Below are positions 2,906 through 63,696 of a DNA stretch of 64,000 nucleotides, piece by piece. The translations under genes and the position numbers were made by a program. How positions within the stretch are numbered: position 1 is the stretch's first letter; every line of letters begins with the position of its first letter. This DNA is from Alphaproteobacteria bacterium (GTDB lineage: Bacteria > Pseudomonadota > Alphaproteobacteria > UBA2966), in assembly GCA_964291395.2 (NCBI GenBank), contig OZ219858.1, forward strand, positions 992,001 to 1,056,000, in the 5' to 3' direction. Under the pieces are notes generated by a model. That model did not search any database. It was not told the origin of the DNA and saw only the letters and a program-made list of their open reading frames with translations.

Positions 2906-4678
2906 TCACGGGCTCTCGCGTTCGTCCTGGACGAACATCTCTTCCAGCTCGCGGGTCCAGTGCCTGGCCTCCTCGGCCATGCGGTCGATATCGTGCGCGA
3001 TCTCGTGCTGCTGGATCAGGTGCGCGGTATCGTGCTCGCGGAAGGTATCGACCGTGTGCCGGCTTTCGAAGTCGCCGAGGCCCAGCTCCATCAGGACTCC
3101 GTGGGCAAGCTCGAGGCTCGAATGGAACGTGTCACGCACGACGTGGGCGATGCCGAGATCCATCAACGCATAGGCGTGCTGGCGGTTGCGCGCGCGGGCG
3201 AAGACCGTCAGATGGGGGAAGTGCTTGCGCACGGCCCGCGCCGTGGCAAGCGAGCGCTCGACGTCCTCGATCGCGAGCACGAAGAGCACGGCCTTGTCGG
3301 CCCTGGCGGCGCGCAGCAGCTCCACGCGGGTCGCGTCGCCGTAGTAGACCTTGTTGCCGAAGCGGCGCACGAAATCGACCTGTTCGGCGCTGGTCTCCAG
3401 CGCCGTGAAGCCGATGCGGCGGACCCGCAGGATGCGGCCCACGATCTGGCCGACCCGGCCGAAGCCGGCGATGATGACCCGGTTCTCCTCTTCGATGTGG
3501 CGCTCGTACGCCGGCTCCGTCTCCCGCCTGATGCGGGCGTTCAGCCAGTCGTTCGCCTTGAAGGCGAGAGGCGTCGCCGCCATCGAGAGCGTCACCACGA
3601 CGATCAGCAGGTCGGCCGTGCGTTCGTCCATCAGCGAGGAGCCCACACCGACGGTGAGGATCACGAAGGCGAACTCGCCGCCTTGCGCGAGCGTCACGGC
3701 CGTGCCGCGGACGGTCCGCCAGCTCGGCGTGTCGAGGCGCACGATGGCGAACAGGCAGAGCGTCTTCACGAGCATGAGACCGAGGGCGAGGCCGAGCACG
3801 GTGAGCGGGGTCTCGATCACCAATCCGATGTTGACGGTCATGCCGACCGCCATGAAGAACAGTCCCAGAAGCAGGCCCTTGAAGGGTTCGATGTCGGCTT
3901 CCAGCTCGTGCCGGTACTCGGATTCGGCGAGCAGCACTCCCGCCAGGAACGCGCCCAGCGCCATCGAGAGACCGACGAGTTCCATCAGAAGCGCGACGCC
4001 CACCACCGTGAGAAGCGTCGTGGCGGTGAACACTTCATGCGTGCCGAACCGCGCCACGAGCCTCAGGACATAGCGCAAGAGATAGCGGCCGCCGAAGACC
4101 ACGAGCGCGATCATGCCCACTGCCTTGGCGACGCCGAGCCAGACCATCCCGCCCTCGGCGCCTCCGGACGCGGGCGCCAGCAGCGGCAGGAGGGCCAGCA
4201 TCGGGATCACCGCGATGTCCTGGAACAGCAGGATCGAGAACGACAGGCGGCCGTGGCGGGTCGCAAGCTCGTTGCGCTCGGCCAGCGTCTGCAGGCCGAA
4301 GGCGGTCGAGGACAGCGACAGGGCAAGCCCTGCCACCACGGCGGTCTCCAGGGGCAGCCCGAACGCCATGGCGAGGCAGGCGAGGGCGGCTGCGGTCAGC
4401 GCAACCTGTCCGCCGCCCAGCCCGAACACCGCCCGGCGCATCGCCCACAGGCGGCGCGGCTGCAGTTCGAGACCGATGACGAACAGCAGGAGGACGACGC
4501 CGAACTCCGCGAAATGGAGGATCTCCTGCTCGTCGTGGACCAGGTCCAGCGCCCAGGGTCCCACGATCACGCCCGCCAGCATGTAGCCCAGCACCGAGCC
4601 CAGCCCGGCTCGCCTGGCGAGCGGGACGACGATCGCGGCGGCGGCGAGAAAGATCGCGACCTGTTCGAGAAAAGCCAT
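2906..4678 (-). CDS. kefC: KefB/KefC-type CPA2 potassium efflux protein with KTN domain
   Basis: Multi-TM N-terminus, HELEADIEPFKGLLLGLFF loop, GFGRVGQ KTN motif; kefB versus kefC cannot be distinguished by eye. Confidence 0.88.
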   Translation of the reverse strand: MAFLEQVAIFLAAAAIVVPLARRAGLGSVLGYMLAGVIVGPWALDLVHDEQEILHFAEFGVVLLLFVIGLELQPRRLWAMRRAVFGLGGGQVALTAAALACLAMAFGLPLETAVVAGLALSLSSTAFGLQTLAERNELATRHGRLSFSILLFQDIAVIPMLALLPLLAPASGGAEGGMVWLGVAKAVGMIALVVFGGRYLLRYVLRLVARFGTHEVFTATTLLTVVGVALLMELVGLSMALGAFLAGVLLAESEYRHELEADIEPFKGLLLGLFFMAVGMTVNIGLVIETPLTVLGLALGLMLVKTLCLFAIVRLDTPSWRTVRGTAVTLAQGGEFAFVILTVGVGSSLMDERTADLLIVVVTLSMAATPLAFKANDWLNARIRRETEPAYERHIEEENRVIIAGFGRVGQIVGRILRVRRIGFTALETSAEQVDFVRRFGNKVYYGDATRVELLRAARADKAVLFVLAIEDVERSLATARAVRKHFPHLTVFARARNRQHAYALMDLGIAHVVRDTFHSSLELAHGVLMELGLGDFESRHTVDTFREHDTAHLIQQHEIAHDIDRMAEEARHWTRELEEMFVQDERESP

Positions 4679-4841
4679 TTGTGTACCCCTTCGTCTCGGT
4701 CTGCGCCGGCCGTTCCGTCCAGCCCGTCACCGAAGTCCTGTCGGACTCCTACCGGGACTGAGCGAGGCGGCGGCCCGGGCGAACGTGATGATACGGCCCG
4801 GGGATCGGTCGGTGGCAGGGCGCCGTCGCGCCACCGCGGAG

Positions 4842-5597
4842 TCAGGCGGCGGCGCCGAGCTTCGCCGCGACCAGAAACTCCCGGTTTCCTTCGGGTCCCC
4901 GGATGGGACTCTCCGAAACCCCCAACGCCCGCCAGCCGGATTGGCGTTCGATGAAGCCTTGAATCCGCTCGCATACCTCGTCGTGCAGGCGGGGATCGCG
5001 CACGACGCCGTTCTTCCCGATCCGGTCCCGGCCGACCTCGAACTGCGGCTTGATCAAGGCGACGAGCGTGGCGGGAGATGCCGCCAGCTTCATCGCCGGC
5101 GGCAGCGCGAGTTCGAGGCCGATGAAGCTGACGTCGCAGACGATCAGGTCCACGGGCTCGGGGACGTGCTCCCGTGACAGGTAGCGGGCGTTGGTGCGTT
5201 CCAGGACCACCACCCGGTCGTCCTGTCGCAGCTTCCATGCGAGCTGACCGCGGCCGACGTCGACGGCGTAAACCTTGCGGGCGCCCCCTTCGAGCAGCAC
5301 GTCCGTGAAGCCGCCCGTCGAGGCGCCGATATCGACGGCGACGGCGCCCGATGCGGAGAGACCGAAGTGCTTCAAGGCGTGCGCCAGCTTGATGCCGCCC
5401 CGGCTGACCCAGGGATGCGCCGCTCCCCTGACGGTCAGCGGCGTGTCCCGGGGAAACGCGGCGCCGGGCTTGTCGATTCGCCGCTCTTCGCAAAACACGT
5501 TGCCGGCCATGACCAGCGCCTTGGCCTTTTCGCGGGACGCCGCCAGTCCCCGCTCCACGAGAAGCTGGTCGACCCGAACCTTGGCGGGCTTTGCCAT
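4842..5597 (-). CDS. tlyA: TlyA family rRNA 2'-O-methyltransferase
   Basis: S4-like RVDQLLVERGL, VSRGGIKL, DIGASTGGFTD, LIKPQFE, GNREFL. Confidence 0.95.
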   Translation of the reverse strand: MAKPAKVRVDQLLVERGLAASREKAKALVMAGNVFCEERRIDKPGAAFPRDTPLTVRGAAHPWVSRGGIKLAHALKHFGLSASGAVAVDIGASTGGFTDVLLEGGARKVYAVDVGRGQLAWKLRQDDRVVVLERTNARYLSREHVPEPVDLIVCDVSFIGLELALPPAMKLAASPATLVALIKPQFEVGRDRIGKNGVVRDPRLHDEVCERIQGFIERQSGWRALGVSESPIRGPEGNREFLVAAKLGAAA

Positions 5598-5661
5598 ATG
5601 CGCGATTCTACGTCACGGTCGGAGGGAACCGGGAGAGACGAACGGCCTCGCCCGGGCGCTC

Positions 5662-5715
5662 GGCAAGGATCTCGAACGCAAGCGTGAGCAGCGCGGCACC
5701 GGAAAGAATGGCGGT
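5662..5715 (-). pseudogene. ispA: Short internal remnant of a polyprenyl (farnesyl) diphosphate synthase gene
   Basis: Translates [18 protein letters not shown], matching the IspA motif xAILAGDALxTLAFxIL, at the position where ispA normally follows xseB. Confidence 0.75.
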
Positions 5716-5984
5716 CAGGACAAGTCCGCGGGCTCCGAGGCCACATCGCCATCCGGGCTGAGCACGATCCTCTCGATTTTCTCCTCGGCGGCGCGGAGCT
5801 TGGCCTCGCAATGACGCTTGAGCTGGGCGCCGCGCGTGTAGATTTCGATGGACTCTTCGAGACTCGCGTCGCCCGCCTCGAGCCGCCGGACGATGTCCTC
5901 GAGCTCCGCCAGTCCTTCTTCGAAGCTGAGCTTCGCGATCTCGGCGGGGACGGGCGCGTCGTCGTCCGATTTCGCCTTCGCCAT
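5715..5984 (-). CDS. xseB: Exodeoxyribonuclease VII small subunit
   Basis: [18 protein letters not shown]...[11 protein letters not shown]...C; AGGAGG RBS. Confidence 0.96.
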
Positions 5985-6051
5985 GCAACCTCCTGATTTT
6001 CCGGGAGTTTAGGCCCGGCGGCTGTACCGGACAAGGAAACGCCCGTGAGCG

Positions 6052-6107
6052 CGCGCTACGCGCCCGTCGATTCCAAGGACGCACGCCTCCGTCGGGCGGG
6101 CCGGCGC
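6052..6107. repeat. Degenerate direct-repeat copy of the HDAC gene 3' end (19882-19936)
   Basis: About 47/56 identical by manual alignment, including the stop codon. Confidence 0.85.
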
Positions 6108-6159
6108 GCGCGCCGGGCTCGAGGGGTGGGACTGCAGGCCGGGCCTCGGCGGAGCGCCT

Positions 6160-6975
6160 TCAGCGCGCCCGTCTCAGGCTGGTCTGGCTGAAATCGCGGT
6201 CCGTCAGATCGGTCCGGAACTTGAAGTCCGTCCAGGTCAGGAGCGTGCTCTTGCCGGTAAGGTGGTTGACCATCGACATTTCCGCCGCCCGCCAGTAGCG
6301 CTCCAGAAAGCGTTCGTACTTGCCGAGCGTCAGCGTCTTCAGATGCGCGTCCTTGCGATCGTAGTACTCGATTTTCCAGATGCGGAGCTCGTCCCGGTCG
6401 CGCCAGACGACCTGCCGGCGGTAGCCGGATCCTTTCTCCACCGGCACGGCCTCGACGAGCGTGCACGTCGACTCCCCACACGCCTCGTCGCGCAGATGGC
6501 GGTACCTGTACTTCTCCACCTCCGGGGCGCCGAGATCCTCATAGGAGAATTCGCTGCCCATGAAGGAGCCGGACCGGTTCGACGAGCTGATGCGCTTGAC
6601 CCGTTTCAGCGCAGGCAGGTAGAGCCACTGGTCGTCCGCTCCTTCCCGGTGGGCGTGAATGAGTAGCGCGGTCCCTTTGACGCCCCGCGGCTCGTCGAAC
6701 ACGAACAGGCTCTTGTTGCCGTCGTCGGCAACTTCGAGGACTTTGATCCGAAGCTGCCGCCGGCTTTCCTGCCCCTGCTTGTTGCGCAGCACCATGGTTT
6801 GGCTGGCCGTGAAGTTGCCGAACCCCGTGTCCCGTTCGCGAGCCTCGGTGGCGATCCTGAGGCCGGCTTCCTCGGCGCTTTCCGCGCTCGCCGGCGCCGG
6901 CATCGAGAGGACCGCCGGCAGGGTCAGGCAACACGCGGCAAACACGGACCAGACGAAACGGGCTCGGGCGGTCAT
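6160..6975 (-). CDS. Outer membrane lipoprotein-sorting (LolA-like) protein
   Basis: Signal peptide; DDQWLYLPALKRVKRI...SFMGSEFSYED motif; overlaps the MMPL gene stop. Confidence 0.9.
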   Translation of the reverse strand: MTARARFVWSVFAACCLTLPAVLSMPAPASAESAEEAGLRIATEARERDTGFGNFTASQTMVLRNKQGQESRRQLRIKVLEVADDGNKSLFVFDEPRGVKGTALLIHAHREGADDQWLYLPALKRVKRISSSNRSGSFMGSEFSYEDLGAPEVEKYRYRHLRDEACGESTCTLVEAVPVEKGSGYRRQVVWRDRDELRIWKIEYYDRKDAHLKTLTLGKYERFLERYWRAAEMSMVNHLTGKSTLLTWTDFKFRTDLTDRDFSQTSLRRAR

Positions 6976-52265: not shown

Positions 52266-53012
52266 ATGAGTTTCCCCTGGGACGACCTGTACACGATCGA
52301 AACGCTTATTGCGCTTATCGTTGCCGTTGTTGCCGGCGTCTCCCGCGGATTCACTGGCTTTGGTTCGTCGCTGATCATGGCCCCCATCTATGCCGTGATG
52401 TACGGGCCGGTCGTGACGGTGGGAACGGTTCTGGCCCTCGAAGTGGCGGTCTCCGTCGACTCCGTGACACGCGTGGCCCGTATCATTCCGTGGCGGACGA
52501 TGATCCCCGTTTGGATAGCGGCGTGGATCGCGGTTCCGTTCGGGACGTGGGTGCTCCTGATCGCCGACGCGGATGTCATGCGCCGGGCTATCTCGTTGAT
52601 CGTGGCTCTTCTCGCGATTCTGCTGATGGCAGGCTGGCGCTACCCCGGCCCTCACCGCCTGATTCCGAACCTCTGTGTCGGAACGCTGAGCGGCATCTTG
52701 AATTCATCGACCAGCCTCGGCGGGCCACCCCTCATTTTCTATATGCTGATGGGACCCGGCTCGACGGCCGCCGCCCGCGCTGCTTTGATCGCCAACGTCT
52801 TCGTAGTCAGCGTTCCAACCGTCGTCATACTGCTGTGGAACGGGACGCTGGACGCACTCGCGTTGTGGCGAACCGCGATCGTGTTTCCCTTCTTCCTGGT
52901 CGCGACCCAGATCGGCAACCGCATTTTTCACGCGTCGCGGGAAAAGACCTATCGCCGCGCCTCGGCGTGGCTCTTGCTCATCGTCGCGGTCGGTACCTTC
53001 GTCGCGGAATGA
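52266..53012 (+). CDS. TauE/SafE sulfite exporter family protein
   Basis: GVSRGFTGFGS, LGGPP; multi-TM. Confidence 0.87.
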   Translation: MSFPWDDLYTIETLIALIVAVVAGVSRGFTGFGSSLIMAPIYAVMYGPVVTVGTVLALEVAVSVDSVTRVARIIPWRTMIPVWIAAWIAVPFGTWVLLIADADVMRRAISLIVALLAILLMAGWRYPGPHRLIPNLCVGTLSGILNSSTSLGGPPLIFYMLMGPGSTAAARAALIANVFVVSVPTVVILLWNGTLDALALWRTAIVFPFFLVATQIGNRIFHASREKTYRRASAWLLLIVAVGTFVAE

Positions 53013-53116
53013 GTAGCGGCCGCGACGCGTCCGGTCCGGTCGGTTGAATTCCGTCGATGTTGTCGACATCATCGAGGAGAACGGCGTATCCGCCGTATCG
53101 CTCAAGGAACTCCGGG

Positions 53117-54682
53117 ATGGTGTCGCCAAGCAGGAGCAATTCGACGAGCCGACCCAGCCGGGCGGCGAAAATCCGTGCAGGCCTTGACCATCCGGTGGTC
53201 GACGCGGATGGGCACATGCTGGAATATGCCCCGGTCTTTCTCGACTTCCTCAAGCAGGTGGCGGGAGCGGATACGGTCAAGCGTTACGCGGCGAACTCCA
53301 AGAGGTCGCGGGCCAATCTCTGGCACACGATGTCGAGGCGCCAAGTTCGGGATTACCGGATCGGGCGGCCGCCGTTTTGGGCCGTCGCCGCCGCCCACAC
53401 GCTCGATCGGGCGACGTCCATGCTGCCCGGCTTGCTGCGCGACAGGCTCGACGAACTCGGATTCGACTACACCATCGTGTATCCGACGTTCGGATTCTTC
53501 TTGATCGATGAACCGGACGAAGAACTGCGCCGGGCGTGTTGCCGGGCTCACAACACCATGACCGCCGATATGTTCGGCCCGCACGCCGATCGCATGACTC
53601 CGGCGGCCTGCATCCCAACGGGCACGCCGGTGGAGGCCGTCGAGGAACTCGAGCATGCCGTAAAGACACTCGATCTCAAGGTTGCGATGGTGGCCAGCCT
53701 GTTTCATCGGCCGATCAAGGCGGCTCCTCACGTCGAAGACGACCCGCGTCTGCAGGCGTACTGGATCGACAACCTCGCCGTCGACAGCGAGTACGATTAC
53801 GACCCTTTCTGGGCGAAATGCGTTGAACTCGGCATTGCGCCGACCGCTCATTCTCACCTCCAGGGACACGGACACCGCCGTTCGGTGAACAACTATCTTT
53901 ACAATCAGATCGGCCACTTCGCGGATGCCGGTGAAGCGTCCGCCAAGGCGGTGTTCCTTGGCGGTGTGACCCGGCGATTCCCCGAGCTCAATTTCGCATT
54001 TCTCGAAGGCGGAGCGGTCTGGGCGTGCGGCCTGTATGCCACGCTGGTCAGCGCATGGAGAAAACGGGGGGCGCACGCCATCGGCCAGTTCGATCCTTCC
54101 AGGATCGACTTCGACGAACTCGGCGAGTATTTCGACAAGTACGGCGGGGAGTCGTTCTCGCGTGCGCTCGGTGGGCGGGTCACCAACGAAACCAAGCGGC
54201 TCGGGTATGTCAACGTGTCCTCCGACGGCACGACCAGCAAGGCCGATCTGGACCGTCTGGATGATTTTGCGGCCTGTCAGATCGAAAAGGCCGAGGACAT
54301 CATCGATCTTTTCGTCGAGCCGTTCTACTTCGGCTGCGAGGCGGACGATCCCATGGCCGCGGTCGCCTTCCGCGGCAAGGGACTCCCGTTCGATGTCAAG
54401 CTGAAAGCCGTGTTCGGTTCGGACATCGGCCACTGGGACGTGCCCGAAATGCGGGAGGTGCTGGAAGAAGCCTTCGAACTGGTAGAGGACGGGCTCATGG
54501 AAGAGGACGATTTCCGAGATTTCATGTTCACCAATCCCGTCACGCTGCACGCACGGGGCAATCCCAGCTTCTTCAAGGGTACCATCGTCGAGGACGCGGT
54601 GGACAAGCTATTGATCGAGGAGGCCGGCAAAACCGGGAAGAGACGGTCCAAGGGAAAGAAAGCGATCGCGCAGTCCGCGTGA
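53117..54682 (+). CDS. Amidohydrolase family protein
   Basis: VVDADGH, FAFLEGG..W, FGSDIGHWD. Confidence 0.88.
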   Translation: MVSPSRSNSTSRPSRAAKIRAGLDHPVVDADGHMLEYAPVFLDFLKQVAGADTVKRYAANSKRSRANLWHTMSRRQVRDYRIGRPPFWAVAAAHTLDRATSMLPGLLRDRLDELGFDYTIVYPTFGFFLIDEPDEELRRACCRAHNTMTADMFGPHADRMTPAACIPTGTPVEAVEELEHAVKTLDLKVAMVASLFHRPIKAAPHVEDDPRLQAYWIDNLAVDSEYDYDPFWAKCVELGIAPTAHSHLQGHGHRRSVNNYLYNQIGHFADAGEASAKAVFLGGVTRRFPELNFAFLEGGAVWACGLYATLVSAWRKRGAHAIGQFDPSRIDFDELGEYFDKYGGESFSRALGGRVTNETKRLGYVNVSSDGTTSKADLDRLDDFAACQIEKAEDIIDLFVEPFYFGCEADDPMAAVAFRGKGLPFDVKLKAVFGSDIGHWDVPEMREVLEEAFELVEDGLMEEDDFRDFMFTNPVTLHARGNPSFFKGTIVEDAVDKLLIEEAGKTGKRRSKGKKAIAQSA

Positions 54683-54733
54683 CGGCATTCCCGGTGACGT
54701 CGCTTCACAAGCAACAAACCAGGGAGGAGAGAC

Positions 54734-55366
54734 ATGGCCGCCAATCTGAACGTCAGCATGGAAGCCTGGAACGACGGCGAGCCCATCCCGGAAGAGTACG
54801 CATTTTGCGTGCCTGCCGACGAAGGCCACGTCACCATGGGCGCCAACCTGAGCCCGGCGATGCGCTGGTCGGGCGCACCCGACGATACCAAGTCGTACGC
54901 CATCATCTGCAACGATCCTGACGTTCCCTCCGTCGCCGACGACGTCAATCAGGAGGGCAAGATCATCCCGGCCGACTTGCCTCGGGTCGATTTCTGCCAT
55001 TGGGTGCTTGTCGACGTGCCCGCCGACGTCACGTCGCTGGACAAAGGTGCGGAGTCCGGGGGCGTCGCGCCCGGGGGTAAACCCCACGGGCCAACGGACC
55101 ATGGCGTTCGCGGAATCAACCGCTACACGGAATGGTTCGAGGGCGACGAGCAGATGGCGGGTAGCTACGGGGGGTACGACGGTCCCTGCCCGCCCTGGAA
55201 CGACACCATCCTGCACCACTACGTCTTCACGGTGTATGCCCTTGATGTCGAAAGCCTCGGCTTGAGTGGGACCTTTAGCTGCAAGGAGGCACTCGAGGCG
55301 ATGGAAGGGCATGTCCTGGCGGAAGGGTCCTGTACCGGGACTTACACCCTCAATCCCGATTTGTGA
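54734..55366 (+). CDS. YbhB/YbcL (PEBP, Raf kinase inhibitor-like) protein
   Basis: DPDVP, HWVLVD, YDGPCPP, HHYVFTVYALD. Confidence 0.93.
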   Translation: MAANLNVSMEAWNDGEPIPEEYAFCVPADEGHVTMGANLSPAMRWSGAPDDTKSYAIICNDPDVPSVADDVNQEGKIIPADLPRVDFCHWVLVDVPADVTSLDKGAESGGVAPGGKPHGPTDHGVRGINRYTEWFEGDEQMAGSYGGYDGPCPPWNDTILHHYVFTVYALDVESLGLSGTFSCKEALEAMEGHVLAEGSCTGTYTLNPDL

Positions 55367-55445
55367 TAGCCGTCGAACGGATTGCGTCCGTTAACTGCCA
55401 TGAAGGCCGCGACGTGGTTCGCCGCTGACCGCTGGAATAGTCGTC

Positions 55446-56300
55446 TCAGGCGGCGATGATCGCGGCTCCGGTCACTTGGGTCCGGTGCATCGTGCGGCGT
55501 GAGTCCGCGGGAAACGCGTTTCGACGGTGCATGACACAGCGATTGTCCCAAATGATCAGGTCACCCGTCCGCCACTCATGGGTCCACACGTACTTCCGTT
55601 GGGTGGCATGTGCCCAAAGCGCATCGAGGAGCTTCTCGCTTTCCTCCGCGTCCATGCCAACGATGTATTGCTTGGGGCGGCGCCCCAAATAGAGAACCGG
55701 CCGGTCAGTGTCGGGATGACGGCGCATCAGCGGATGGCGCGCGTGCGGTGACTCTGTTCGCACCCCCGCCACCTCCACCGAACGTTGCGGGGCGCCGGCG
55801 CTGTCATAGGTGCCATCCTGGTGCGCCGATTTGCCTGCGATCGCCGACCGCAAATGCTCGGGCAGCTCCGACGTCGCCGAGTACATATTGCAGAATTCGG
55901 TCTCGCCGCCCTCTGACGACACTTCCAGGGCATGGAGAATGCTGGCCTTGGGTGGCACGGGGTGGTTGGACATGTCCGTATGCCAGCGCAGCTCTCCGTC
56001 GCCCAGGCTACCCATCGGCTCGCCGTCGACGATGACGTTGGAAACGATGATGAGTTCCGGATGTTCCGCCGAGTACTGCTTTCCCGTCGCATTGGGGGGA
56101 CAAAGATCCAAGTCGCCGAAGTAACGGCTGAAACTGATCAGTTCCGGGTCGGAGATGAACTGGTTGCGGAAAAGCAAGACCAGGTGTTCGGACCAGGCGT
56201 CCATGATTGTCCCGGCGTCCGCCGGGTCGAGCGCTTGAGAGAGATCCGCGCCGCGAATCTCGGCTCCCAGTGCCTTGCCGGTGGGAATCACTTCGATCAT
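55446..56300 (-). CDS. TauD/TfdA family 2-oxoglutarate dioxygenase
   Basis: WHTD, GGETEF, WDNRCVMHR. Confidence 0.93.
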   Translation of the reverse strand: MIEVIPTGKALGAEIRGADLSQALDPADAGTIMDAWSEHLVLLFRNQFISDPELISFSRYFGDLDLCPPNATGKQYSAEHPELIIVSNVIVDGEPMGSLGDGELRWHTDMSNHPVPPKASILHALEVSSEGGETEFCNMYSATSELPEHLRSAIAGKSAHQDGTYDSAGAPQRSVEVAGVRTESPHARHPLMRRHPDTDRPVLYLGRRPKQYIVGMDAEESEKLLDALWAHATQRKYVWTHEWRTGDLIIWDNRCVMHRRNAFPADSRRTMHRTQVTGAAIIAA

Positions 56301-56415
56301 GACCTTGTCCTTTGACGACTACGATGGTCGGTGCGCAACGCCGGCTGCCGAGCATACGATTTTTCCAGATCTGACGGCCCGGTTAAAGGGGCCAAAGACG
56401 AAACGAGTTGTGCGC

Positions 56416-57948
56416 TCACTGGCCTACGCTTCGCGCAACGCGGAACCCGAAATTGTAATTGCGGTACTCCAGGATGTACCGGGCTCGCTTGGCGGATCGG
56501 ACATTCTTCGGATGGCTCCCCCAGGCACCGCCTCGCATCACGCGGCGCCCGCAGTTTCCGCTCAACCAGGGCGAACCGTCCCGGGGCGCGCCCCGATAGC
56601 TGTCGTTCCAGCAGTCTTCGACCCATTCCCAGACGTTTCCATGAACGTCGTGCAAACCGAATTCATTTGGTGCAAAGCTGCCGACGGGAAGCGTTCGCTT
56701 GCGGTACACGCCTCTCTCGCCTTCCCCATATGACGACGTCCCGTTGTAGTTCGCTTGGTCCGACGTGATTGTCTGGCCCACGTGGAATGGTGACCGCGTG
56801 CCCGCCCGGGCCGCGTATTCCCATTCCGCTTCGCTCGGCAGCCGATAGATCTGGCCGGTCTTCTCGCTAAGCCAAGCGGCGTACGCCTTCGCCGTGTTCC
56901 AGCTGATGCAGACGACGGGATCGTTCTCGCCCTGCGGATACCCGGGATCGCGCCAGCTCTTCGACGTGTCCAAGCGGCCGCCCGAGCCGACCCGCACGAA
57001 GCAGGAGCCTCCCCCTGCGTGTCCCGTTTCTTCGACGAAGGATGTGAATTCTCCTCGCGTCACCTCGAATCTGCCCATGGCGAACGAGGCCACCATGACT
57101 TCGTGCTTCGGTCCCTCCACGTCGTCCCGAAACGGCTCGTCCGGCGGCGAACCCATGACGAATGCGCCGCCCGGCACCACCACCATCTCCGGGCACACGT
57201 CGCAGTCTCTGAATGTCGTGCCGGGTGGCAGATCCGGCAACAGCAGCAGGAAGGTCCCGAGAGCGGCGAATACCAGGAGCGATATGCCCATCGCCACCAG
57301 CCGCCACCTCGGGAGACGGACAGGTCCCGTCGCCAGGGGGACAAGATCCCCCGTGCCTTGAAGCGCGCCGGTGGCCGGGGCGGTCACGGGTTCGAGCCCC
57401 ACGTGACGCAGGACTTCGTCGGCGTTGCGCACGCCCAGGATCCCTTCAACGCCGGCTATGCCGTGATCGGCGACGTCCTCCAGATTCGCTGCGGGAACGA
57501 CCAGCGTGACGGGAGATTTCTCCGCGACGCGGCCGGAAAAATGCTCGCGCGTCGCGTGAAGCTTCTCTCTCATGAAATCCGCTTTTCCCACCCGCAGATC
57601 AACGTCGACGGTTCCGGTGATCCACAGGGTTGCGCCTGCGTCCTCACCGGGTCCCGCAAGGCGACCCGCCCTATCCAACGCGTGCGCGACCAATACGGGC
57701 AGCTGCCAGGAATTGCCGTCGCCGATTTCGCCCGAGGCGTCCAACCGGAAGCCACCGGGCTCGAACGGGCCCAGGACCCGCTCGATCACACCCGAGGGTT
57801 GGCGAACGAAATCATCGTAATCGGAGCTGATGGGCAGAACCGATGTCGTCCGGCCCAGGCAAACCTGCGAAATGGGCGCCGCCTCGCGCGTGATCCGCTC
57901 GATCTGAACGGGCTCTTTCGTGGTTGCGGCGAAGACGTGAACCTTCAT
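56416..57948 (-). CDS. Lon-like (S16) protease domain + TM helix + formylglycine-generating-enzyme (SUMF1/C-lectin fold) domain
   Basis: FGE motifs RLPSEAEWEYAARAG, GNVWEW, GFRVAR are clear; N-domain has DGNS, ITG.V, REK, VVPAAN; hydrophobic segment at about aa 217-237. Confidence 0.8.
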   Translation of the reverse strand: MKVHVFAATTKEPVQIERITREAAPISQVCLGRTTSVLPISSDYDDFVRQPSGVIERVLGPFEPGGFRLDASGEIGDGNSWQLPVLVAHALDRAGRLAGPGEDAGATLWITGTVDVDLRVGKADFMREKLHATREHFSGRVAEKSPVTLVVPAANLEDVADHGIAGVEGILGVRNADEVLRHVGLEPVTAPATGALQGTGDLVPLATGPVRLPRWRLVAMGISLLVFAALGTFLLLLPDLPPGTTFRDCDVCPEMVVVPGGAFVMGSPPDEPFRDDVEGPKHEVMVASFAMGRFEVTRGEFTSFVEETGHAGGGSCFVRVGSGGRLDTSKSWRDPGYPQGENDPVVCISWNTAKAYAAWLSEKTGQIYRLPSEAEWEYAARAGTRSPFHVGQTITSDQANYNGTSSYGEGERGVYRKRTLPVGSFAPNEFGLHDVHGNVWEWVEDCWNDSYRGAPRDGSPWLSGNCGRRVMRGGAWGSHPKNVRSAKRARYILEYRNYNFGFRVARSVGQ

Positions 57949-58496
57949 CCGTCGATGAATATCTCGCTTCCGGGATCACGAAGCGCCGCCAGCACTTCCG
58001 AATCGTTTTCGACGAGAATTTGGATCAATCCGGCGTGGGGTTCCGGCAGCGCAACCCGTCGGCACGTATTGTCGCCGACGAACACCGCCAGCCATCTCGG
58101 ATGACGGCCCGGATCATCCAAGGAGATGATGATGTACGTCTGCGCCGGCTCGGCGCGTGATTCTTCAAAACGAATGCGGCAGCCGGGGGCCACGCGTTGC
58201 GCGACGCCTCCCGCGGCTGCGGCGGCGAGTTCGGGGATATGATAGCAGGCAATCTTTTCGGTGAGGCGCCGCAATTCGGCGCGAAGTGCGGAACTTTCCC
58301 GAAGTGCGGTCTCGAGGTTCGGGTCTCTTGGGCGCGCCTCGGTAACGTAAACGTAGAGACGCCGCAGCGTGACGTGCTCACCGAACTCCATTCCATCGAT
58401 CGAGACGCCCAGCGCCGCTTCCGTCGCAAGCACGTCGAATGTCCGCTCGGCAACCGCAAGAGTGTCATCGTCGGGTAGCTCAAACCGTTCGCTCAT
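57945..58496 (-). CDS. Hypothetical protein, anti-sigma-factor-like
   Basis: ATGA overlaps with both neighbours; LYVYV...LETALRESSALRAELRRL pattern; central LAAAAA. The gene is well supported, the function is inferred. Confidence 0.6.
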   Translation of the reverse strand: MSERFELPDDDTLAVAERTFDVLATEAALGVSIDGMEFGEHVTLRRLYVYVTEARPRDPNLETALRESSALRAELRRLTEKIACYHIPELAAAAAGGVAQRVAPGCRIRFEESRAEPAQTYIIISLDDPGRHPRWLAVFVGDNTCRRVALPEPHAGLIQILVENDSEVLAALRDPGSEIFIDG

Positions 58497-60004
58497 CGTT
58501 CGACCCCATAGATACGAGCAAACTGTTTGCTGAACACGTCATGATCGTATGCGAACTGATCGTCGAGATCAGTCCCTTCCTCCACCGATTGTTTCAATAC
58601 CCGCAGAAATGCATGGATTTGATCGCTAATCGCCGCCAGTGCTCCGGCACCGACTTCGTACACGACACCCGATCCGCGTTCACCCACGACCGCGTCCTCG
58701 AAGCCCCTGCGCGAGATTCCCGCAAAGGCCCGTTTCGCTACATCCCGCGCCTCCTCGAGCCGCTCGTCTTCGGACGCTCGTTCCGCAGCGTCATCCGCCT
58801 GGAGAGCCACGTGGAGCGCTGCCCGCAATGCGTTGTTCACGCGCTCGTCCAGCACGACGAGCCGGTCATGCCATTCCCGGTACGTCTCGGCGCCGGCGCA
58901 GGCGATGAGCTCGCTCAAGGTGTCGCCAGTATCCCGCCGCCTTGCAGCTTGTGAAAGCCGGGCCTGTACATCCCCGAAGACTTCGGCACGCAACAGAGAC
59001 CAGGGCAGCCGATGCACGCGCGGTCCGTGCTCCATCAGACGATCCAGAGCCGTCAGGTCCACCTTGTTCAGGAACCGAACGTTCTCGAAGGGCGGCTCTT
59101 GCAACGTCGAAAGCGGGGAGGTCCACAAGGCGGCTGCTTCCGCGTCATCCAGAAGTAGAGCAACGTCGACCTCACCCGCATCCCGATCGGAGCCGATTGA
59201 ACGGGCGCGTTCGACGGCCTCGCGGTCCGTCGCGATCTCGAGGGCCGAGAGGAAAGCCATGTAGGCGTCGAACACGCTCCGAAACAGACGGAAGTTTCCG
59301 GTTTCGCCGTTCAGAGATTTCTCCCGCCAGAACGCCAGGACGGTGGCGTCCTCGACGACCAGCGTTTTCGACTCCGACCTCGCGTAATCGAGCAGCTCCT
59401 GAAACTTGCCCTGCATCTGAACGCTTGGAAGGTGTTCCTTCAGGTACGCATACAGGCGCCGTTCGATTCCATTCGCTGCGCTCCGGACGCCGCGGTCCGT
59501 CATGGGTGGTTCCAGCATGGTGTGGAACTCATCGTCGACAGCGGCGTAACCGATGGTGCCGCAGAGAAATTCGAACAAGGCGGCGAGAACCGGCATTCCG
59601 GCAAATCCCACGTTGAAGACACCGTCGTCGTAGCGCACGGCAACGCCGTCTGCCGTCAGTTCGCATCCGGGACGCCGCCAACCCCGATTAGTCACGGCGT
59701 TCTGGATCCAGCCTCGGAATCCGGAACCGGTAGCACGTTCCGGTCCCAGCAACAAATGCTCGTAGGCGCCGCGGCGGGGCGCGCACGAGTCGGCCACGTT
59801 GATCAGGTGGCAAAGCTGCAGGACGGGTACCGCATAGGCGCGGCAGACGACGAGCCGGTTGAGACGACGGCACACCTTGGTGGGATAGTGGGCCGCACCG
59901 TCCGGGGTGGTGGAGTCCGCCACCGCTTGGAGGGCGGCTCGCAGCTCGCCACTCTGTCCCGCCTCCAGGACGAGGCTTGCCGCGCGTTCTATTTCGAGCG
60001 ACAT
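58493..60004 (-). CDS. Hypothetical protein (~503 aa), possibly a divergent sigma-factor-like protein
   Basis: Long ORF with AGGAGG RBS 7 nt before ATG 60004; function speculative. Confidence 0.6.
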   Translation of the reverse strand: MSLEIERAASLVLEAGQSGELRAALQAVADSTTPDGAAHYPTKVCRRLNRLVVCRAYAVPVLQLCHLINVADSCAPRRGAYEHLLLGPERATGSGFRGWIQNAVTNRGWRRPGCELTADGVAVRYDDGVFNVGFAGMPVLAALFEFLCGTIGYAAVDDEFHTMLEPPMTDRGVRSAANGIERRLYAYLKEHLPSVQMQGKFQELLDYARSESKTLVVEDATVLAFWREKSLNGETGNFRLFRSVFDAYMAFLSALEIATDREAVERARSIGSDRDAGEVDVALLLDDAEAAALWTSPLSTLQEPPFENVRFLNKVDLTALDRLMEHGPRVHRLPWSLLRAEVFGDVQARLSQAARRRDTGDTLSELIACAGAETYREWHDRLVVLDERVNNALRAALHVALQADDAAERASEDERLEEARDVAKRAFAGISRRGFEDAVVGERGSGVVYEVGAGALAAISDQIHAFLRVLKQSVEEGTDLDDQFAYDHDVFSKQFARIYGVER

Positions 60005-60245
60005 GTTCACGCCTCCTGCATGGTCAGATCACGTTCAACGCCGGTGGAATTCCTCCTGCCTGCTTTAGTCGGAGGCCGGCCTTCTTGGCAACAGCGGCAT
60101 CGAACTCACGGCCATGGGCCTGGGCGACGCCCCGCTCGGTGACATCCTGGCGCGCGTGGCGCGACTGCCGTGGGTGGGCTAATTTTCGCCATCGGGTGAC
60201 GGATCCGTACCCAATTCAAGCCCGAAAACATCGGAGGGAGCATCT

Positions 60246-60494
60246 ATGTCGTTCTACAAACCGGACCTTGGCGCAAATCCGGACGATCCCTTTGCCCGCG
60301 ATGCCGATGGAAAGCTGGTCAGGCGAGCGTTTTGGCTCGATATGAGCGACCGCTCTCTGGTGCTCGCCATGACCCGGGGAGTTGGCGCCCCTTTGACCGC
60401 GTCGGAAAAACGCGCTCATCTCGAGGACGTCGACCGTTCCCACTTGATCGATGAGGTCTGTACACAGGAAATCCTGCCACCCGAGGGGGAATGA
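60246..60494 (+). CDS. Small hypothetical protein (82 aa)
   Basis: GGAGGGAG RBS, natural-looking sequence; divergent from the 3-gene operon. Confidence 0.65.
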   Translation: MSFYKPDLGANPDDPFARDADGKLVRRAFWLDMSDRSLVLAMTRGVGAPLTASEKRAHLEDVDRSHLIDEVCTQEILPPEGE

Positions 60495-60638
60495 CCCCCG
60501 ATCGTGCACGGCAGAGCTGGGCCTGCGGTCGTTGCCGACTGCCGAGGGTTTGTGGACAATGGTGTCGGTGCGGGCTAGAAGGGTGTCGCTGTTTCGGGGT
60601 GTCCGGGATGGTTGAGAGGATTTTGGAGGGGTGGAGCG

Positions 60639-60977
60639 ATGGATGTTGCGACGGAACGGCAGGACGACGTCTTGTCGGTCCTGGTGAGCGGTCGCATTGA
60701 CGGTTCCAATGCTGCGGCGTTCGAGGAGTCGGTTAGAGCGGCGATTTCGGACAGCGACCGAGCGGTGATCATGGACCTTGAGAAGCTTTCTTATATCAGC
60801 AGCGCGGGTCTTCGTGTTTTGCTGATGATTGCCAAGAATCTTTCGGGTCGGGACGCCAAGCTGGCGCTTTGCGCCATGTCGGATCAGATTCGGGAGGTTA
60901 TCGAGATAAGCGGTTTCGACAAGATCATCCCGGTTCACCCGTCCAAGGCCGAGGCGCTTGCGTCCCTGGACGGCTGA
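60639..60977 (+). CDS. STAS-domain anti-sigma factor antagonist (RsbV/SpoIIAA-like)
   Basis: GRID, DLEKLSYISSAGLRVLL, EISGF. Confidence 0.93.
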   Translation: MDVATERQDDVLSVLVSGRIDGSNAAAFEESVRAAISDSDRAVIMDLEKLSYISSAGLRVLLMIAKNLSGRDAKLALCAMSDQIREVIEISGFDKIIPVHPSKAEALASLDG

Positions 60978-61045
60978 TCTGGTGGGGTGGGCGTTTTCTG
61001 CGCCTTGTTTGTGGTTCTGGGTGCCGCGACGCGGGGGTCTGAGGG

Positions 61046-61468
61046 ATGGTCGCTGAGGTGTCCTTGCGCATGGGGGCGGCCCGGGAGGAGCTTCCGCGCG
61101 TACACGCGGCGCTTGAGGCGTTTGCGCGGGATGAGGGCTGGCCTTCTCGGCTTGAGTTTCAGATCAAGCTGGTCATCGAGGAGGTGGTCATGAACATCCT
61201 GAGTCATGGGTACGAGGATGGCGGCGATCACGACATCCTGATCGAGCTTGCCTCGGATGCGGAGAAGATCGGCATCGAGATTGTCGACGACGGTCGCCCG
61301 TACGATCCTCTGACGGAGGCGCCGGCACCGGATACCGAGGCGTCTCTCGCGGACCGTCCCGTGGGCGGGCTAGGCGTGTATCTCGTATGCGCGTTGATGG
61401 ACGAGGCCAGCTATCGGCGGGAGGACAACCTCAACCGCCTCGCCCTTACCAAACAAAAACCCGCGTAA
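61046..61468 (+). CDS. RsbW/SpoIIAB-like anti-sigma kinase (HATPase)
   Basis: EEVVMNILSHG, DDGRPYDP, GGLGVYL. Confidence 0.92.
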   Translation: MVAEVSLRMGAAREELPRVHAALEAFARDEGWPSRLEFQIKLVIEEVVMNILSHGYEDGGDHDILIELASDAEKIGIEIVDDGRPYDPLTEAPAPDTEASLADRPVGGLGVYLVCALMDEASYRREDNLNRLALTKQKPA

Positions 61469-61630
61469 CCAGACGTTCAGGCCGGTTGCATCCGACAACA
61501 AACAGAAACGCAGACGGCGCATGCCGCAGCGAAGGTATGCTTAAATCCTCCGGTTAATGAATGTTTAGATGGAAACGGAGAGCGAACCGGCGTATACGCA
61601 TATCCCTCTTGCCGCATGAGGAGCAGTGTC

Positions 61631-63016
61631 ATGCCCGGGAAATGGACGCCGGATAGCTGGCGCGGCCTGCCGATTCGGCAGCAGCCGGATTATCCGGATG
61701 CTGCCGCGCTGGAGGAGGCCCTGGATCGGATACGACGGCAGCCGCCGCTCGTCTTCGCGGGCGAGGCGCGCCGGTTGCGTTCGGCGCTGGCGGGTGTGGC
61801 GGAGGGACGGGCCTTTCTGCTGCAGGGCGGCGACTGCGCCGAGAGCTTCGCCGAATTCAGCGCGGACAACATCCGCGACACGTTCCGGGTTTTGATGCAG
61901 ATGGCGGTCGTCATGACGTTCGCGGCGGCCTGCCCCATCATCAAGGTCGGGCGCTTGGCGGGTCAGTTCGCCAAGCCGCGCAGCGCGCCGACGGAGGTCC
62001 AGGACGACGTGGAGCTTCCGAGCTATCGCGGCGATATCGTGAACGGCATGGAGTTTACGGCCGAGGCTCGGGCGGCCAACCCTTCCAGGCTTCTTCAGGG
62101 CTACCACCAATCTTCCGCGACCTTGAATCTGTTGCGGGCGGTCGCGCACGGCGGCTATGCCGACCTTCGCCGCGTTCACGGCTGGAATCTGGATTTCGTT
62201 TCCCGCACCGCTCAGGGCGAGAGATACGCCGGCCTCGCCGACCGTATCACTGAGGCCCTGAGCTTCATGGAGGCATGTGGCATCACCGGTGAGTCCGTGC
62301 CGGCCGTAAGAGAGGTGGACTTCTATACCTCGCATGAGGCCTTGCTGCTCGGTTTCGAGGAGGCCATGACCCGCGTCGATTCGACGACGGGCGACTGGTA
62401 CGACACCTCGGCTCACATGCTGTGGATCGGCGACCGTACCCGTCAGGAAGATGGTGCCCACGTCGAGTTCATGCGCGGGGTCTCCAATCCCATCGGCATA
62501 AAGGCGGGTCCCACGATCGCCCCCGACGAACTGTTGCGGTTGATCGATATCCTCGACCCGGCCGTAGAGCCTGGCCGCCTCACGGTCATCGTGCGCATGG
62601 GCGCCGACAAGGTTGGTGAGCGTCTGCCACCGCTCGTTCGCGCGGTTCGGCGGGAGGGCCGCAAGGTCGTGTGGTCTTGCGATCCGATGCACGGCAATAC
62701 GGTGAAGTCGGCGAACGGTTACAAGACCAGGATGTTCGATCGGATTCTGTCGGAGGTCCGGCAATTCTTCGACGTCCACATTGCGGAGGGAACTTACGCC
62801 GGCGGTGTGCATTTCGAGATGACGGGCCAGGACGTTACGGAATGCCTCGGCGGCGCGCAGGACATCACCGAGCGCTCGCTCGCGGATCGTTACCACACCC
62901 ATTGCGACCCGCGCCTCAACGCATCTCAGGCACTGGAGCTGGCGTTTCTGATCGCCGACTCCCTGAAGGAACAGCGCGCCAACGGTCAGCCCCCGATCGC
63001 CGCCGAGGCGTCCTGA
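61631..63016 (+). CDS. Class II DAHP synthase
   Basis: [39 protein letters not shown]. Confidence 0.97.
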
Positions 63017-63228
63017 GTGTTGTTCCCGGCGCGAAACGACCGGCCGCGCACGGTGACTTATTAGGGCATGCCAGGCGCTTTCGGTTACGAGGTCTGCGGA
63101 CGGGCCGAACCCGATCCCTATGCAGTTCCCCGCACGGGTTTCGAAGAGGCCTTGGAGGCCTGCCGCGCCGGCCGCGACCCGCAGTGGGGATGATGGCGCC
63201 CGGAGTTGGCCGGCGTCAGCTCGAGGGA

Positions 63229-63696
63229 TCAGAACACCCCTGCTTCGAGGCCCGCAGCCACTGCCATTCCAAGCTCTTCGCATTGATCGACAAAGGTGTC
63301 CTGCCACTCTCCACGGCAGATCAACGGATCCTGGACGGCGCGCCATCTCAATCCCGTGACGATCGTTTCGACGCCCCGGCGCGTTCCAGTACCGTCCTGA
63401 CCCGCACGGATATAGAGGGCGTAGGGCAGCCCCTGAGTGTGTTCGAGGCAGGGATAGTAGCTTCGGTCGAAAAAATCCTTCAGCGCGCCGCTCATGTATC
63501 CAAGGTTCTCCGTCGTGCCGAGGATCACGGCCTGGGCCGCGAGGACATCGTCCGCCCCCGCTTGGAGAGGCGGGATCATCCGGACCGTCACGTTCCCGAT
63601 GTCGGGGTTCGTGGCGCCGCGTACCACCGCCTCTCTCAGCCGTTCCGTGTTGGGCGAGGGCGCATGGGCGACGATGAGCAAGCGGCGGAGGGTCAT
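63229..63696 (-). CDS. Flavodoxin family protein
   Basis: HAPSPNT, GTTENLGYMSGALKDFFDR, DGTGT. Confidence 0.88.
   Translation of the reverse strand: MTLRRLLIVAHAPSPNTERLREAVVRGATNPDIGNVTVRMIPPLQAGADDVLAAQAVILGTTENLGYMSGALKDFFDRSYYPCLEHTQGLPYALYIRAGQDGTGTRRGVETIVTGLRWRAVQDPLICRGEWQDTFVDQCEELGMAVAAGLEAGVF

Follow-up and report, generated by a model that had tools for sequence, protein, structure and literature searches.

We describe a three-gene operon within a 64,000-nucleotide stretch of alphaproteobacterial DNA (contig OZ219858.1, positions 992,001 to 1,056,000; the whole stretch is called the window below) that we read, from sequence comparison, predicted structures, and analogy, as a CalpL-CalpT-type relay that passes a signal across the membrane by proteolysis. 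We put the probability of this reading at about 0.55. An initial annotation had marked out positions 56416-60004 of the window, where it saw three minus-strand genes chained by ATGA overlaps. Both the genes and the overlaps are there, and the three open reading frames (ORFs) are labeled g1, g2, and g3 as follows:

58493..60004, minus strand: g1, an ORF of 503 amino acids (aa) counted from the ATG; the presumed output or partner component
57945..58496, minus strand: g2, an ORF of 183 aa; the partner and probable substrate
56416..57948, minus strand: g3, an ORF of 510 aa; predicted single-pass membrane protein with a Lon-fold domain at its N-terminus and an FGE-sulfatase-like domain beyond the helix

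The computed results that carry the reading are the fold of the N-terminal domain of g3 (the N-domain), its conserved dyad, the linkage of the genes, the swapping of sensor domains among relatives, and the predicted docking of g2. We begin with the N-domain, which holds these features:

57379..57948, minus strand: putative CalpL-type Lon proteolytic domain, g3 residues 1-190
57709-57711, minus strand: codon of S80, the Ser at the catalytic position of g3
57562-57564, minus strand: codon of K129, the Lys at the catalytic position of g3

Residues 1-190 are the best conserved part of g3. A database search with residues 1-215 returned 43 proteins, and T9, Y44, F47, R68, G78, S80, W81, Q82, A88, H89, G112, and K129 are invariant in 42/42 aligned N-domains. 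The AlphaFold2 model built on this alignment (predicted local distance difference test, pLDDT, 92; predicted template modeling score, pTM, 0.89) has the Lon_C fold over the entire N-domain, and a Foldseek search with it matches 162 PDB chains at E ≤ 0.001, with Lon proteolytic domains on top (E = 5e-7). When the 42-domain profile is compared with the PDB at E ≤ 10, 27 sequences are found, which comprise 26 Lon or CalpL sequences and one designed protein; in these alignments the TG...K spacing of the N-domain agrees with the TGE...K motif of Lon, and K129 falls on its lysine. A profile restricted to the catalytic core pairs G-x-S80-W-Q-L and H-x-x-E-K129 of g3 with G-K-S152-Y-Q-L and H-L-E-E-K193 of CalpL, and S80 and K129 fall on the positions of S152 and K193, the catalytic dyad of CalpL (bioRxiv 10.1101/2024.05.08.593097). 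The Lon domain begins at residue 1, and in the Pfam scan of g3 the only match is FGE-sulfatase; an AAA+ ATPase module is not present. On the strength of the alignment and the model, we conclude that the N-domain is a Lon protease domain of the CalpL type that lacks AAA+ and keeps its Ser-Lys pair intact, and that it is probably site-specific and not processive. The Lon-like motifs and the two residues picked out in the initial annotation were thus correctly chosen, and the Lon_C fold that it had proposed to look for is the one seen in the model.

Species-representative genomes were scanned for related loci, which gave 98, and 80 of these were kept. With the window's proteins alone as tblastn queries, g1 is detected in 60/80 loci, g2 in 60/80, and the Lon domain in 78/80. 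All three genes occur together in 61/80 loci, which bears out the expectation that they would be found side by side in other genomes, and g2 is immediately upstream of the Lon domain in 67/80. The arrangements are distributed as follows:

54/80 loci: g1, g2, and the Lon domain colinear, in that order
5/80 loci: g2 before the Lon domain, g1 divergent
2/80 loci: g1 and g2 elsewhere in the locus
5/80 loci: g2 before the Lon domain without g1, in Reyranella-type nSTAND1-TPR fusions
3/80 loci: g2 before the Lon domain, upstream DNA too short to judge g1
8/80 loci: Lon domain alone
1/80 loci: upstream DNA too short for any judgment
2/80 loci: Lon domain absent, FGE-only match

At the g1/g2 and g2/g3 junctions of the window, the sequence ATGA lets the stop and the next start share 4 nt. 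The overlaps are conserved: of the 54 related loci with the colinear order, 47 allow a 4-nt overlap between g1 and g2, and 46 allow one between g2 and g3. A start codon so placed is compatible with the translational coupling of g1, g2, and g3 that had been claimed, without proving it. The g1 ATG itself is preceded by AGGAGG 8 nt upstream, and an alternative GTG lies at 60010. Within the class, the distribution is patchy: the Lon-like domain is present in 15/401 sampled genomes (14/336 of those of good quality) and in 13/308 genera.

The small protein between g1 and the protease has two features that bear on the reading:

58212..58229, minus strand: LAAAAA of g2, residues 90-95, the proposed cleavage motif Φ-x-A-A-[AS]-[STA]
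57948..58181, minus strand: docking half of g2 as predicted, residues ~106-183

An alignment of 37 g2 homologues shows that the N-terminal half varies and that the Ala-rich linker and the C-terminal half are conserved. The most conserved element is the central P-x-x-[Φ]-x-A-A-[AS]-[STA], followed by R101; A92 and A93 are invariant in 37/37 homologues and P88 nearly so. The central LAAAAA noticed at the outset is indeed present in g2. Conserved features of the C-terminal half include an SRAE stretch, Q119, Y121, L150, and P151. By analogy with CalpT, we infer that cleavage would take place at residues 90-95, and a hypothetical cut after residue 93 would give fragments with computed masses of 10.5 and 9.8 kDa. 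No relevant match to g2 was found in Pfam, NCBIfam, PADLOC, or the PDB sequences, either with the single protein or with a profile, and the 37 homologues searched against Pfam at E ≤ 10 gave no sigma, anti-sigma, or MazF/PemK family. The best ESM Atlas matches (0.95-0.96) are all of its own kind. The nearest Pfam-bearing neighbor there, in which 15% of members carry zf-HC2, scores 0.79, which is chance level since by the tool's own statement a third of shuffled proteins reach it.

Modeling of the g3 Lon domain together with g2, a check that had been suggested for this pair, gives a predicted complex with an interface score (ipSAE) of 0.87, compared with 0.00 for the best of three controls. The mark used is reached by 58/80 solved complexes and 2/110 mismatched pairs. 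At least 97% of the contacts recur between runs, and the partner pLDDT is at least 76. The predicted interface involves g2 residues 111-116, 119, 121, 123, 151-152, 154, 157, and 159-163 and g3 residues 18-45, 68, and 70. Conserved residues are found on both sides of it, namely, R68 and D70 of g3 and the SRAE stretch, Q119, Y121, and P151 of g2. The C-terminal half of g2 is accordingly the part predicted to dock on the g3 protease domain.

C-terminal to the N-domain, g3 continues with the single membrane helix and the FGE/C-lectin-fold domain that the initial annotation had described, both of which our searches recover:

57238..57300, minus strand: single transmembrane helix, g3 L217-L237, with a Kyte-Doolittle 19-residue window of 2.44
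56431..57195, minus strand: PvdO-like FGE-sulfatase (C-type-lectin-fold) domain, g3 residues 252-506; the presumed periplasmic sensor

R211, R214, and R216 flank the helix on its N side, and the positive-inside rule would place the N-domain in the cytoplasm and the FGE domain in the periplasm. Residues 252-506 match Pfam FGE-sulfatase (PF03781) at 1.9e-64. The nearest solved structure is that of PvdO (5hha, 4e-63), with true formylglycine-generating enzymes at ~1e-24. On the NCBIfam PvdO model g3 scores 257.6 bits, under the cut-off of 500, so we call the domain PvdO-like and not a PvdO equivalog. Inspected by eye, without an explicit alignment, the C-terminal stretch of g3 has no Cys pair at what we take to be the catalytic-cysteine positions of FGE. 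As to a possible diversity-generating retroelement, the FGE-coding region is not repeated within the window.

The C-terminal domain is exchanged among relatives, a point that had been suggested for examination. Among 44 full-length g3 homologues, Pfam identifies DUF4384 in seven, FGE-sulfatase in three, DUF4189 in two, and a VHL-beta-like domain in one; one more has only a low-complexity Trypan_PARP match, the remaining C-terminal parts have no Pfam match, and the SAVED family is found in none of the 44. The same Lon domain also stands at the head of proteins of 1000-1360 aa from other lineages, where it is followed by nSTAND1 and TPR, WD40, RHS and PDZ, or TPR domains; examples are L076 (nSTAND1 at 4.4e-71, plus TPR) and L062 (WD40). 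The STAND NTPase is a feature of relatives and is not detected by Pfam in the g3 of the window. Because it is fused elsewhere to STAND NTPase, TPR, or WD40 sensors, the protease-plus-g2 cassette appears, from these comparisons, to be a sensor-independent output module.

Several observations on these relatives are recorded here in their own right. The commonest C-terminal region of g3 homologues, presumed to be periplasmic, has no Pfam match (for example, in L011-L016 and P0012-P0033) and contains two nearly invariant cysteines; it represents an uncharacterized ectodomain family. One metagenome-assembled genome (MAG) encodes three paralogous giant proteins of 1064-1332 aa (L064, L065, and L066), each with the Lon-like domain at its start; one of them has RHS repeats and a PDZ domain, and none has g1 or g2 within 7 kb. 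At L074, the g2-like gene that precedes the Lon-nSTAND1-TPR gene is overlapped at its start by the gene for a 705-aa protein (4129-6246), whose matches to TraG/TraD (type IV coupling protein) are weak; these weak matches are all that Pfam returned when g1-like genes were sought upstream of the STAND-type loci. Six loci (L006, L007, L009, L010, L018, and L024) combine a g3 bearing another C-terminal domain with a separate PvdO-like FGE gene, which lies within ~7 kb of the triad and is 40-53% identical to that of the window. Five of the six are in MAGs labeled Gammaproteobacteria or gammaproteobacterial groups, and L010 is labeled Rhizobiaceae. The nearby FGE genes may reflect a functional link to the cassette beyond fusion, or they may be there by chance.

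The first gene of the operon was initially described as encoding a large protein of no known family, and every library that we consulted agrees. The g1 protein is predicted to be cytoplasmic, acidic (isoelectric point 5.15), and mainly helical over its 503 aa, and its AlphaFold2 model has a pLDDT of 88. It has no match in Pfam, NCBIfam, PADLOC, or the PDB sequences (single protein and profile), its model gives 0 Foldseek matches at E ≤ 0.001 in the PDB and 0 at the same threshold among the viral folds of BFVD, and its best ESM Atlas score, 0.89, is to unnamed clusters. A profile search of 1.84 billion representatives finds 958 proteins when the threshold is E ≤ 1e-3, of which 573 pass E ≤ 1e-30, where members are counted as clusters at 50% identity; the 150 matches listed are 375-699 aa long and include no obvious fusions. 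By sequence, then, g1 is a member of a large uncharacterized family. We also note a conserved hydrophobic stretch at g1 residues 129-156 (59548-59631, minus strand; Kyte-Doolittle 19-residue mean 1.74), in which F130, M137, L140, and A142 are nearly invariant. It follows a small beta-sheet in the mostly helical protein and could be either a helix buried in the core or a membrane segment in latent form.

Taken together, these results suggest a mechanism, of which we infer how g3 lies in the membrane, how clustering activates it, where g2 is cut, how the fragment is degraded, and what g1 does. The g3 protein would sit in the inner membrane, with its Ser80-Lys129 domain in the cytoplasm and its noncatalytic, PvdO-like FGE/lectin-fold domain in the periplasm, and g2 would be anchored to the protease domain by its conserved C-terminal half. 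Binding of a periplasmic ligand to the outer domain would cause g3 molecules to cluster; in the relatives, the trigger would instead be STAND oligomerization. Within such a cluster, the protease domain may cut the g2 bound to a neighboring molecule in trans at the Ala-Ala pair at 92-93, probably just after it. The resulting ~10 kDa N-terminal fragment of g2 would then end in x-Ala-Ala, a ClpXP-type degron of the kind for which ssrA and RseA are precedents, and its degradation by ClpXP-type proteases would free or activate g1. A broader proposal, which we hold tentatively and at somewhat less than even odds, is that an ATP-independent CalpL-type Lon protease with a docked, Ala-Ala-cleavable g2 forms a portable output cassette mounted on unrelated sensors, which would include membrane receptors with lectin-fold, DUF4384, or DUF4189 ectodomains as well as cytoplasmic STAND, TPR, or WD40 proteins, with the CalpL of type III CRISPR systems as one branch. 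In each case, oligomerization would lead to a cut in trans, removal of the fragment with the Ala-Ala end, and release of g1, which would be the founder of a structurally novel effector or regulator family (~10^3 clusters).

The genomic setting of the operon is unremarkable. Its G+C content of 0.61-0.65 is similar to that of the surrounding DNA, and the window's own genome has one copy of the Lon-like domain operon. A Pfam scan of nine ORFs within 52266-63696 identified TauE, Amidohydro_2, PBP, TauD, STAS, HATPase_c_2, DAHP synthase, and FMN_red families, and the ninth ORF (60246-60494) is without a Pfam match. The downstream neighbors are TauD, PEBP, an amidohydrolase, and TauE; STAS, HATPase_c_2, and a class-II DAHP synthase are upstream on the opposite strand. 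No mobile or defense-related genes and no CRISPR genes were seen among these nine ORFs; the genome was not searched for cas genes. The TauD gene next to the operon is shared by the five closest loci (L001-L005), where it likewise adjoins the operon. A scan for promoters and terminators was uninformative, with 1 and 4 sites found against 0.6 and 3.6 expected. Divergently oriented upstream of g1, at 60612-61468 on the plus strand, are genes for a STAS protein (5.2e-22) and a HATPase_c_2 protein (2.6e-25), which from their domain content look like an RsbV/RsbW-like partner-switching pair. A tie between this pair and the operon was considered and rejected: both genes went undetected across the 80 related loci, and the pair is probably unrelated to the operon for that reason. 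The source assembly comprises 4.16 Mb in 3 contigs, with a stated completeness of 98.1% and a contamination of 9.01%, the latter rather high for an assembly of three contigs.

A number of results weigh against a CalpL-CalpT-type relay. Pfam Lon_C matches neither g3 (E ≤ 1) nor any of the 42 homologous N-domains (E ≤ 10), and the N-domain profile reaches Lon and CalpL with weak E-values, 0.0028 at best; with the catalytic-core profile, CalpL is matched at E = 0.21, below a chance match to carbonic anhydrase at 0.16. The g2 profile compared with the PDB at E ≤ 10 gives no match to CalpT and hence no detectable sequence likeness. The predicted complex does not place the Ala motif at S80 and K129, and motif and dyad both lie outside the interface, so the model supports docking and not the cut; the passing score for docking may in part be due to a CalpL-CalpT-like complex in the training data, if one was there. 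The g1 and g2 profiles behind the arrangement classes were built partly from the loci that they scored. Finally, eight loci have a Lon domain without nearby g1 or g2, and five have g2 without g1, which means that g1 is not obligatory.

The alternative that deserves most weight, although we consider it unlikely, shares the proteolytic steps with the relay and differs in their purpose: the operon would be a conflict module, acting against phage or through abortive infection, in which g1 is a toxic and possibly membrane-active effector silenced by g2, and the protease destroys g2 once the lectin-like or STAND sensor detects an invader. Its appeal comes from the relatives, in which the same Lon domain heads nSTAND1 and TPR, WD40, or RHS and PDZ proteins, and from the description of FGS, TPR, and STAND architectures as conflict systems in PMC8195603. 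The three paralogues in one MAG, the patchy spread given above, and the conserved hydrophobic stretch of g1 also fit. PADLOC, however, has no match for g1, g2, or g3; the operon is a single copy of ordinary G+C content, in synteny with TauD in the window and L001-L005 and with no mobile or defense genes in the neighboring ORFs scanned; and the fold matches of g1 are nonspecific. The TauD synteny, the single copy, and the lack of a PADLOC match argue for housekeeping signaling in this genome, while a role in conflict is favored by the relatives fused to STAND and by the patchy distribution. It is improbable, in our view, that g2 itself is the output and g1 an accessory, whether the g2 fragment acts alone or g2 is a pseudosubstrate inhibitor that shields other targets. 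Such a role would fit the invariant pairing of g2 and the Lon domain, their strong predicted docking, and the five loci in which a g2-like gene directly precedes the Lon-nSTAND1-TPR gene with no g1 within 7 kb. The linkage of g1 nonetheless survives rearrangement, with g1 divergent in five loci and displaced along with g2 in two, and g1 overlaps g2 by 4 nt in 47/54 colinear loci.

Still less probable is the version in the initial annotation, which took g1 to be sigma-like and the N-terminal half of g2 to be anti-sigma-like, so that cleavage would let g1 bind RNA polymerase. Apart from the analogy with CalpL-CalpT-CalpS, it could draw on the zf-HC2-bearing Atlas neighbor of g2, whose score is at chance level, and on a phage sigma factor at BFVD rank 8 (E = 0.49, template modeling score 0.12), which is noise. 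Neither assignment finds support: Pfam searches of 34 g1 and 37 g2 homologues at E ≤ 10 return neither Sigma70_r2/r4 nor zf-HC2 nor any other family of sigma or anti-sigma factors, and no other search brought out an anti-sigma-like half in g2. The g1 and g2 profiles have no PDB sequence match, and g1 is a 503-aa protein whose confident model matches no solved fold and resembles no sigma factor, although the fold search alone is inconclusive. We give hardly any credence to a last reading, in which the Lon-fold domain has no catalytic role and serves as a scaffold, as it does in RadA, and g3 would be chiefly a PvdO-like protein of the periplasm whose anchor lies in the cytoplasm. The failure of Pfam Lon_C to match speaks for it; against it, all 42 sequences keep the Ser and Lys of the catalytic positions, and the Lon domain is retained while the outer domain is swapped.

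The transmembrane relay thus stays our preferred reading, and its significance lies in where it would place CalpL chemistry. CalpL-CalpT-CalpS has so far been known as a CRISPR accessory that is switched on by a cyclic nucleotide. The operon suggests that the same chemistry also serves ordinary transmembrane signaling and STAND-type sensing in Alphaproteobacteria and some Gammaproteobacteria. If this is true, g3 and its relatives would be one-component-like membrane receptors of a new class, with proteolytic cleavage as the output instead of phosphorylation, and they would provide a model of protease activation by oligomerization. The operon involves three families that are missing from Pfam, NCBIfam, and PADLOC, namely, the Lon-like domain, g2, and g1 (~958 clusters), and a ligand-gated pair of site-specific protease and substrate may be of interest as a tool.

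Among known systems, the canonical Lon proteases (LonA, LonB, and LonC; MEROPS S16) differ from g3 in having an AAA+ module or an N-terminal substrate domain. The g3 domain is beyond the reach of Pfam Lon_C and has the family-specific invariant residues W81, Q82, and H89. Because it lacks the AAA+ module and fails Pfam Lon_C, we do not regard g3 as a canonical Lon. The proteolysis of RseA by DegS and RseP and then ClpXP is alike only in its logic, by which a signal from the envelope triggers a cut that leaves a C-terminal Ala-Ala degron and releases a bound partner; cleaved RseA ends in VAA. The proteases of that system are a PDZ-trypsin and a site-2 metalloprotease, and its substrate is itself the membrane protein; a sigma factor is not found in the operon of the window.

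The STAND/NLR-like and FGS conflict systems of Kaur, Burroughs, Iyer, and Aravind resemble the relatives of g3, in which nSTAND1 and TPR or WD40 come after an effector-type domain at the N-terminus, and DUF4384 and FGE alternate as the C-terminal domains of g3 homologues. In PMC8195603, the FGE ("FGS") domain is proposed to be a sensor of foreign molecules, and STAND NTPases and TPR or WD40 arrays are described as conflict-system sensors. The g3 of the window differs in that it would be a membrane receptor without an NTPase. A search of the text for "Lon" as a word showed no Lon-type effector in PMC8195603, in two preprints, or in PMC7159879, the last of which has the letters only inside other words; the supplements may list such domains.

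[quoted passage not shown] According to the preprint (bioRxiv 10.1101/2024.05.08.593097), CalpL cuts CalpT inside 202-LAAA, between A204 and A205, which exposes an LAA degron and leads to further degradation; a C-terminal fragment of CalpT of ~10 kDa (CalpT10) sits on CalpL away from the active site, and this placement prompted a model of trans cleavage within filaments or oligomers. The operon shares with this system a unit of three genes, a Lon-fold Ser-Lys protease without AAA+ and with the motifs G-x-S-[YW]-Q-L and H-x-E-E-K, and a small partner with an Ala-rich motif between its halves (the g2 motif and LAA|A of CalpT); the C-terminal ~10 kDa of g2 is predicted to dock off the active site, as reported for CalpT10. 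It differs in that g3 has no SAVED domain or cyclic-nucleotide sensor and is instead putatively membrane-anchored with a periplasmic FGE/PvdO-like domain, with relatives fused to STAND, TPR, or WD40 domains, and in that the neighboring ORFs scanned hold no CRISPR genes. In sequence searches, g2 has no detectable CalpT likeness or MazF-like domain, and the third gene encodes a 503-aa uncharacterized protein in place of an extracytoplasmic function (ECF) sigma factor. Since it has no SAVED domain, no CalpT homology, and no sigma factor, the operon is not a member of the CalpL system. Of the CalpL-like cascade put forward initially, the Lon fold, the Ala motif, the predicted docking, and the independence from SAVED stand, and the sigma and anti-sigma parts find no support. 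The architecture had been thought to be undescribed, and our literature search likewise found no description of g1-g2-g3. Our verdict is that the operon would act like CalpL-CalpT and yet is separate from it, a new variation with two wholly uncharacterized partner families.

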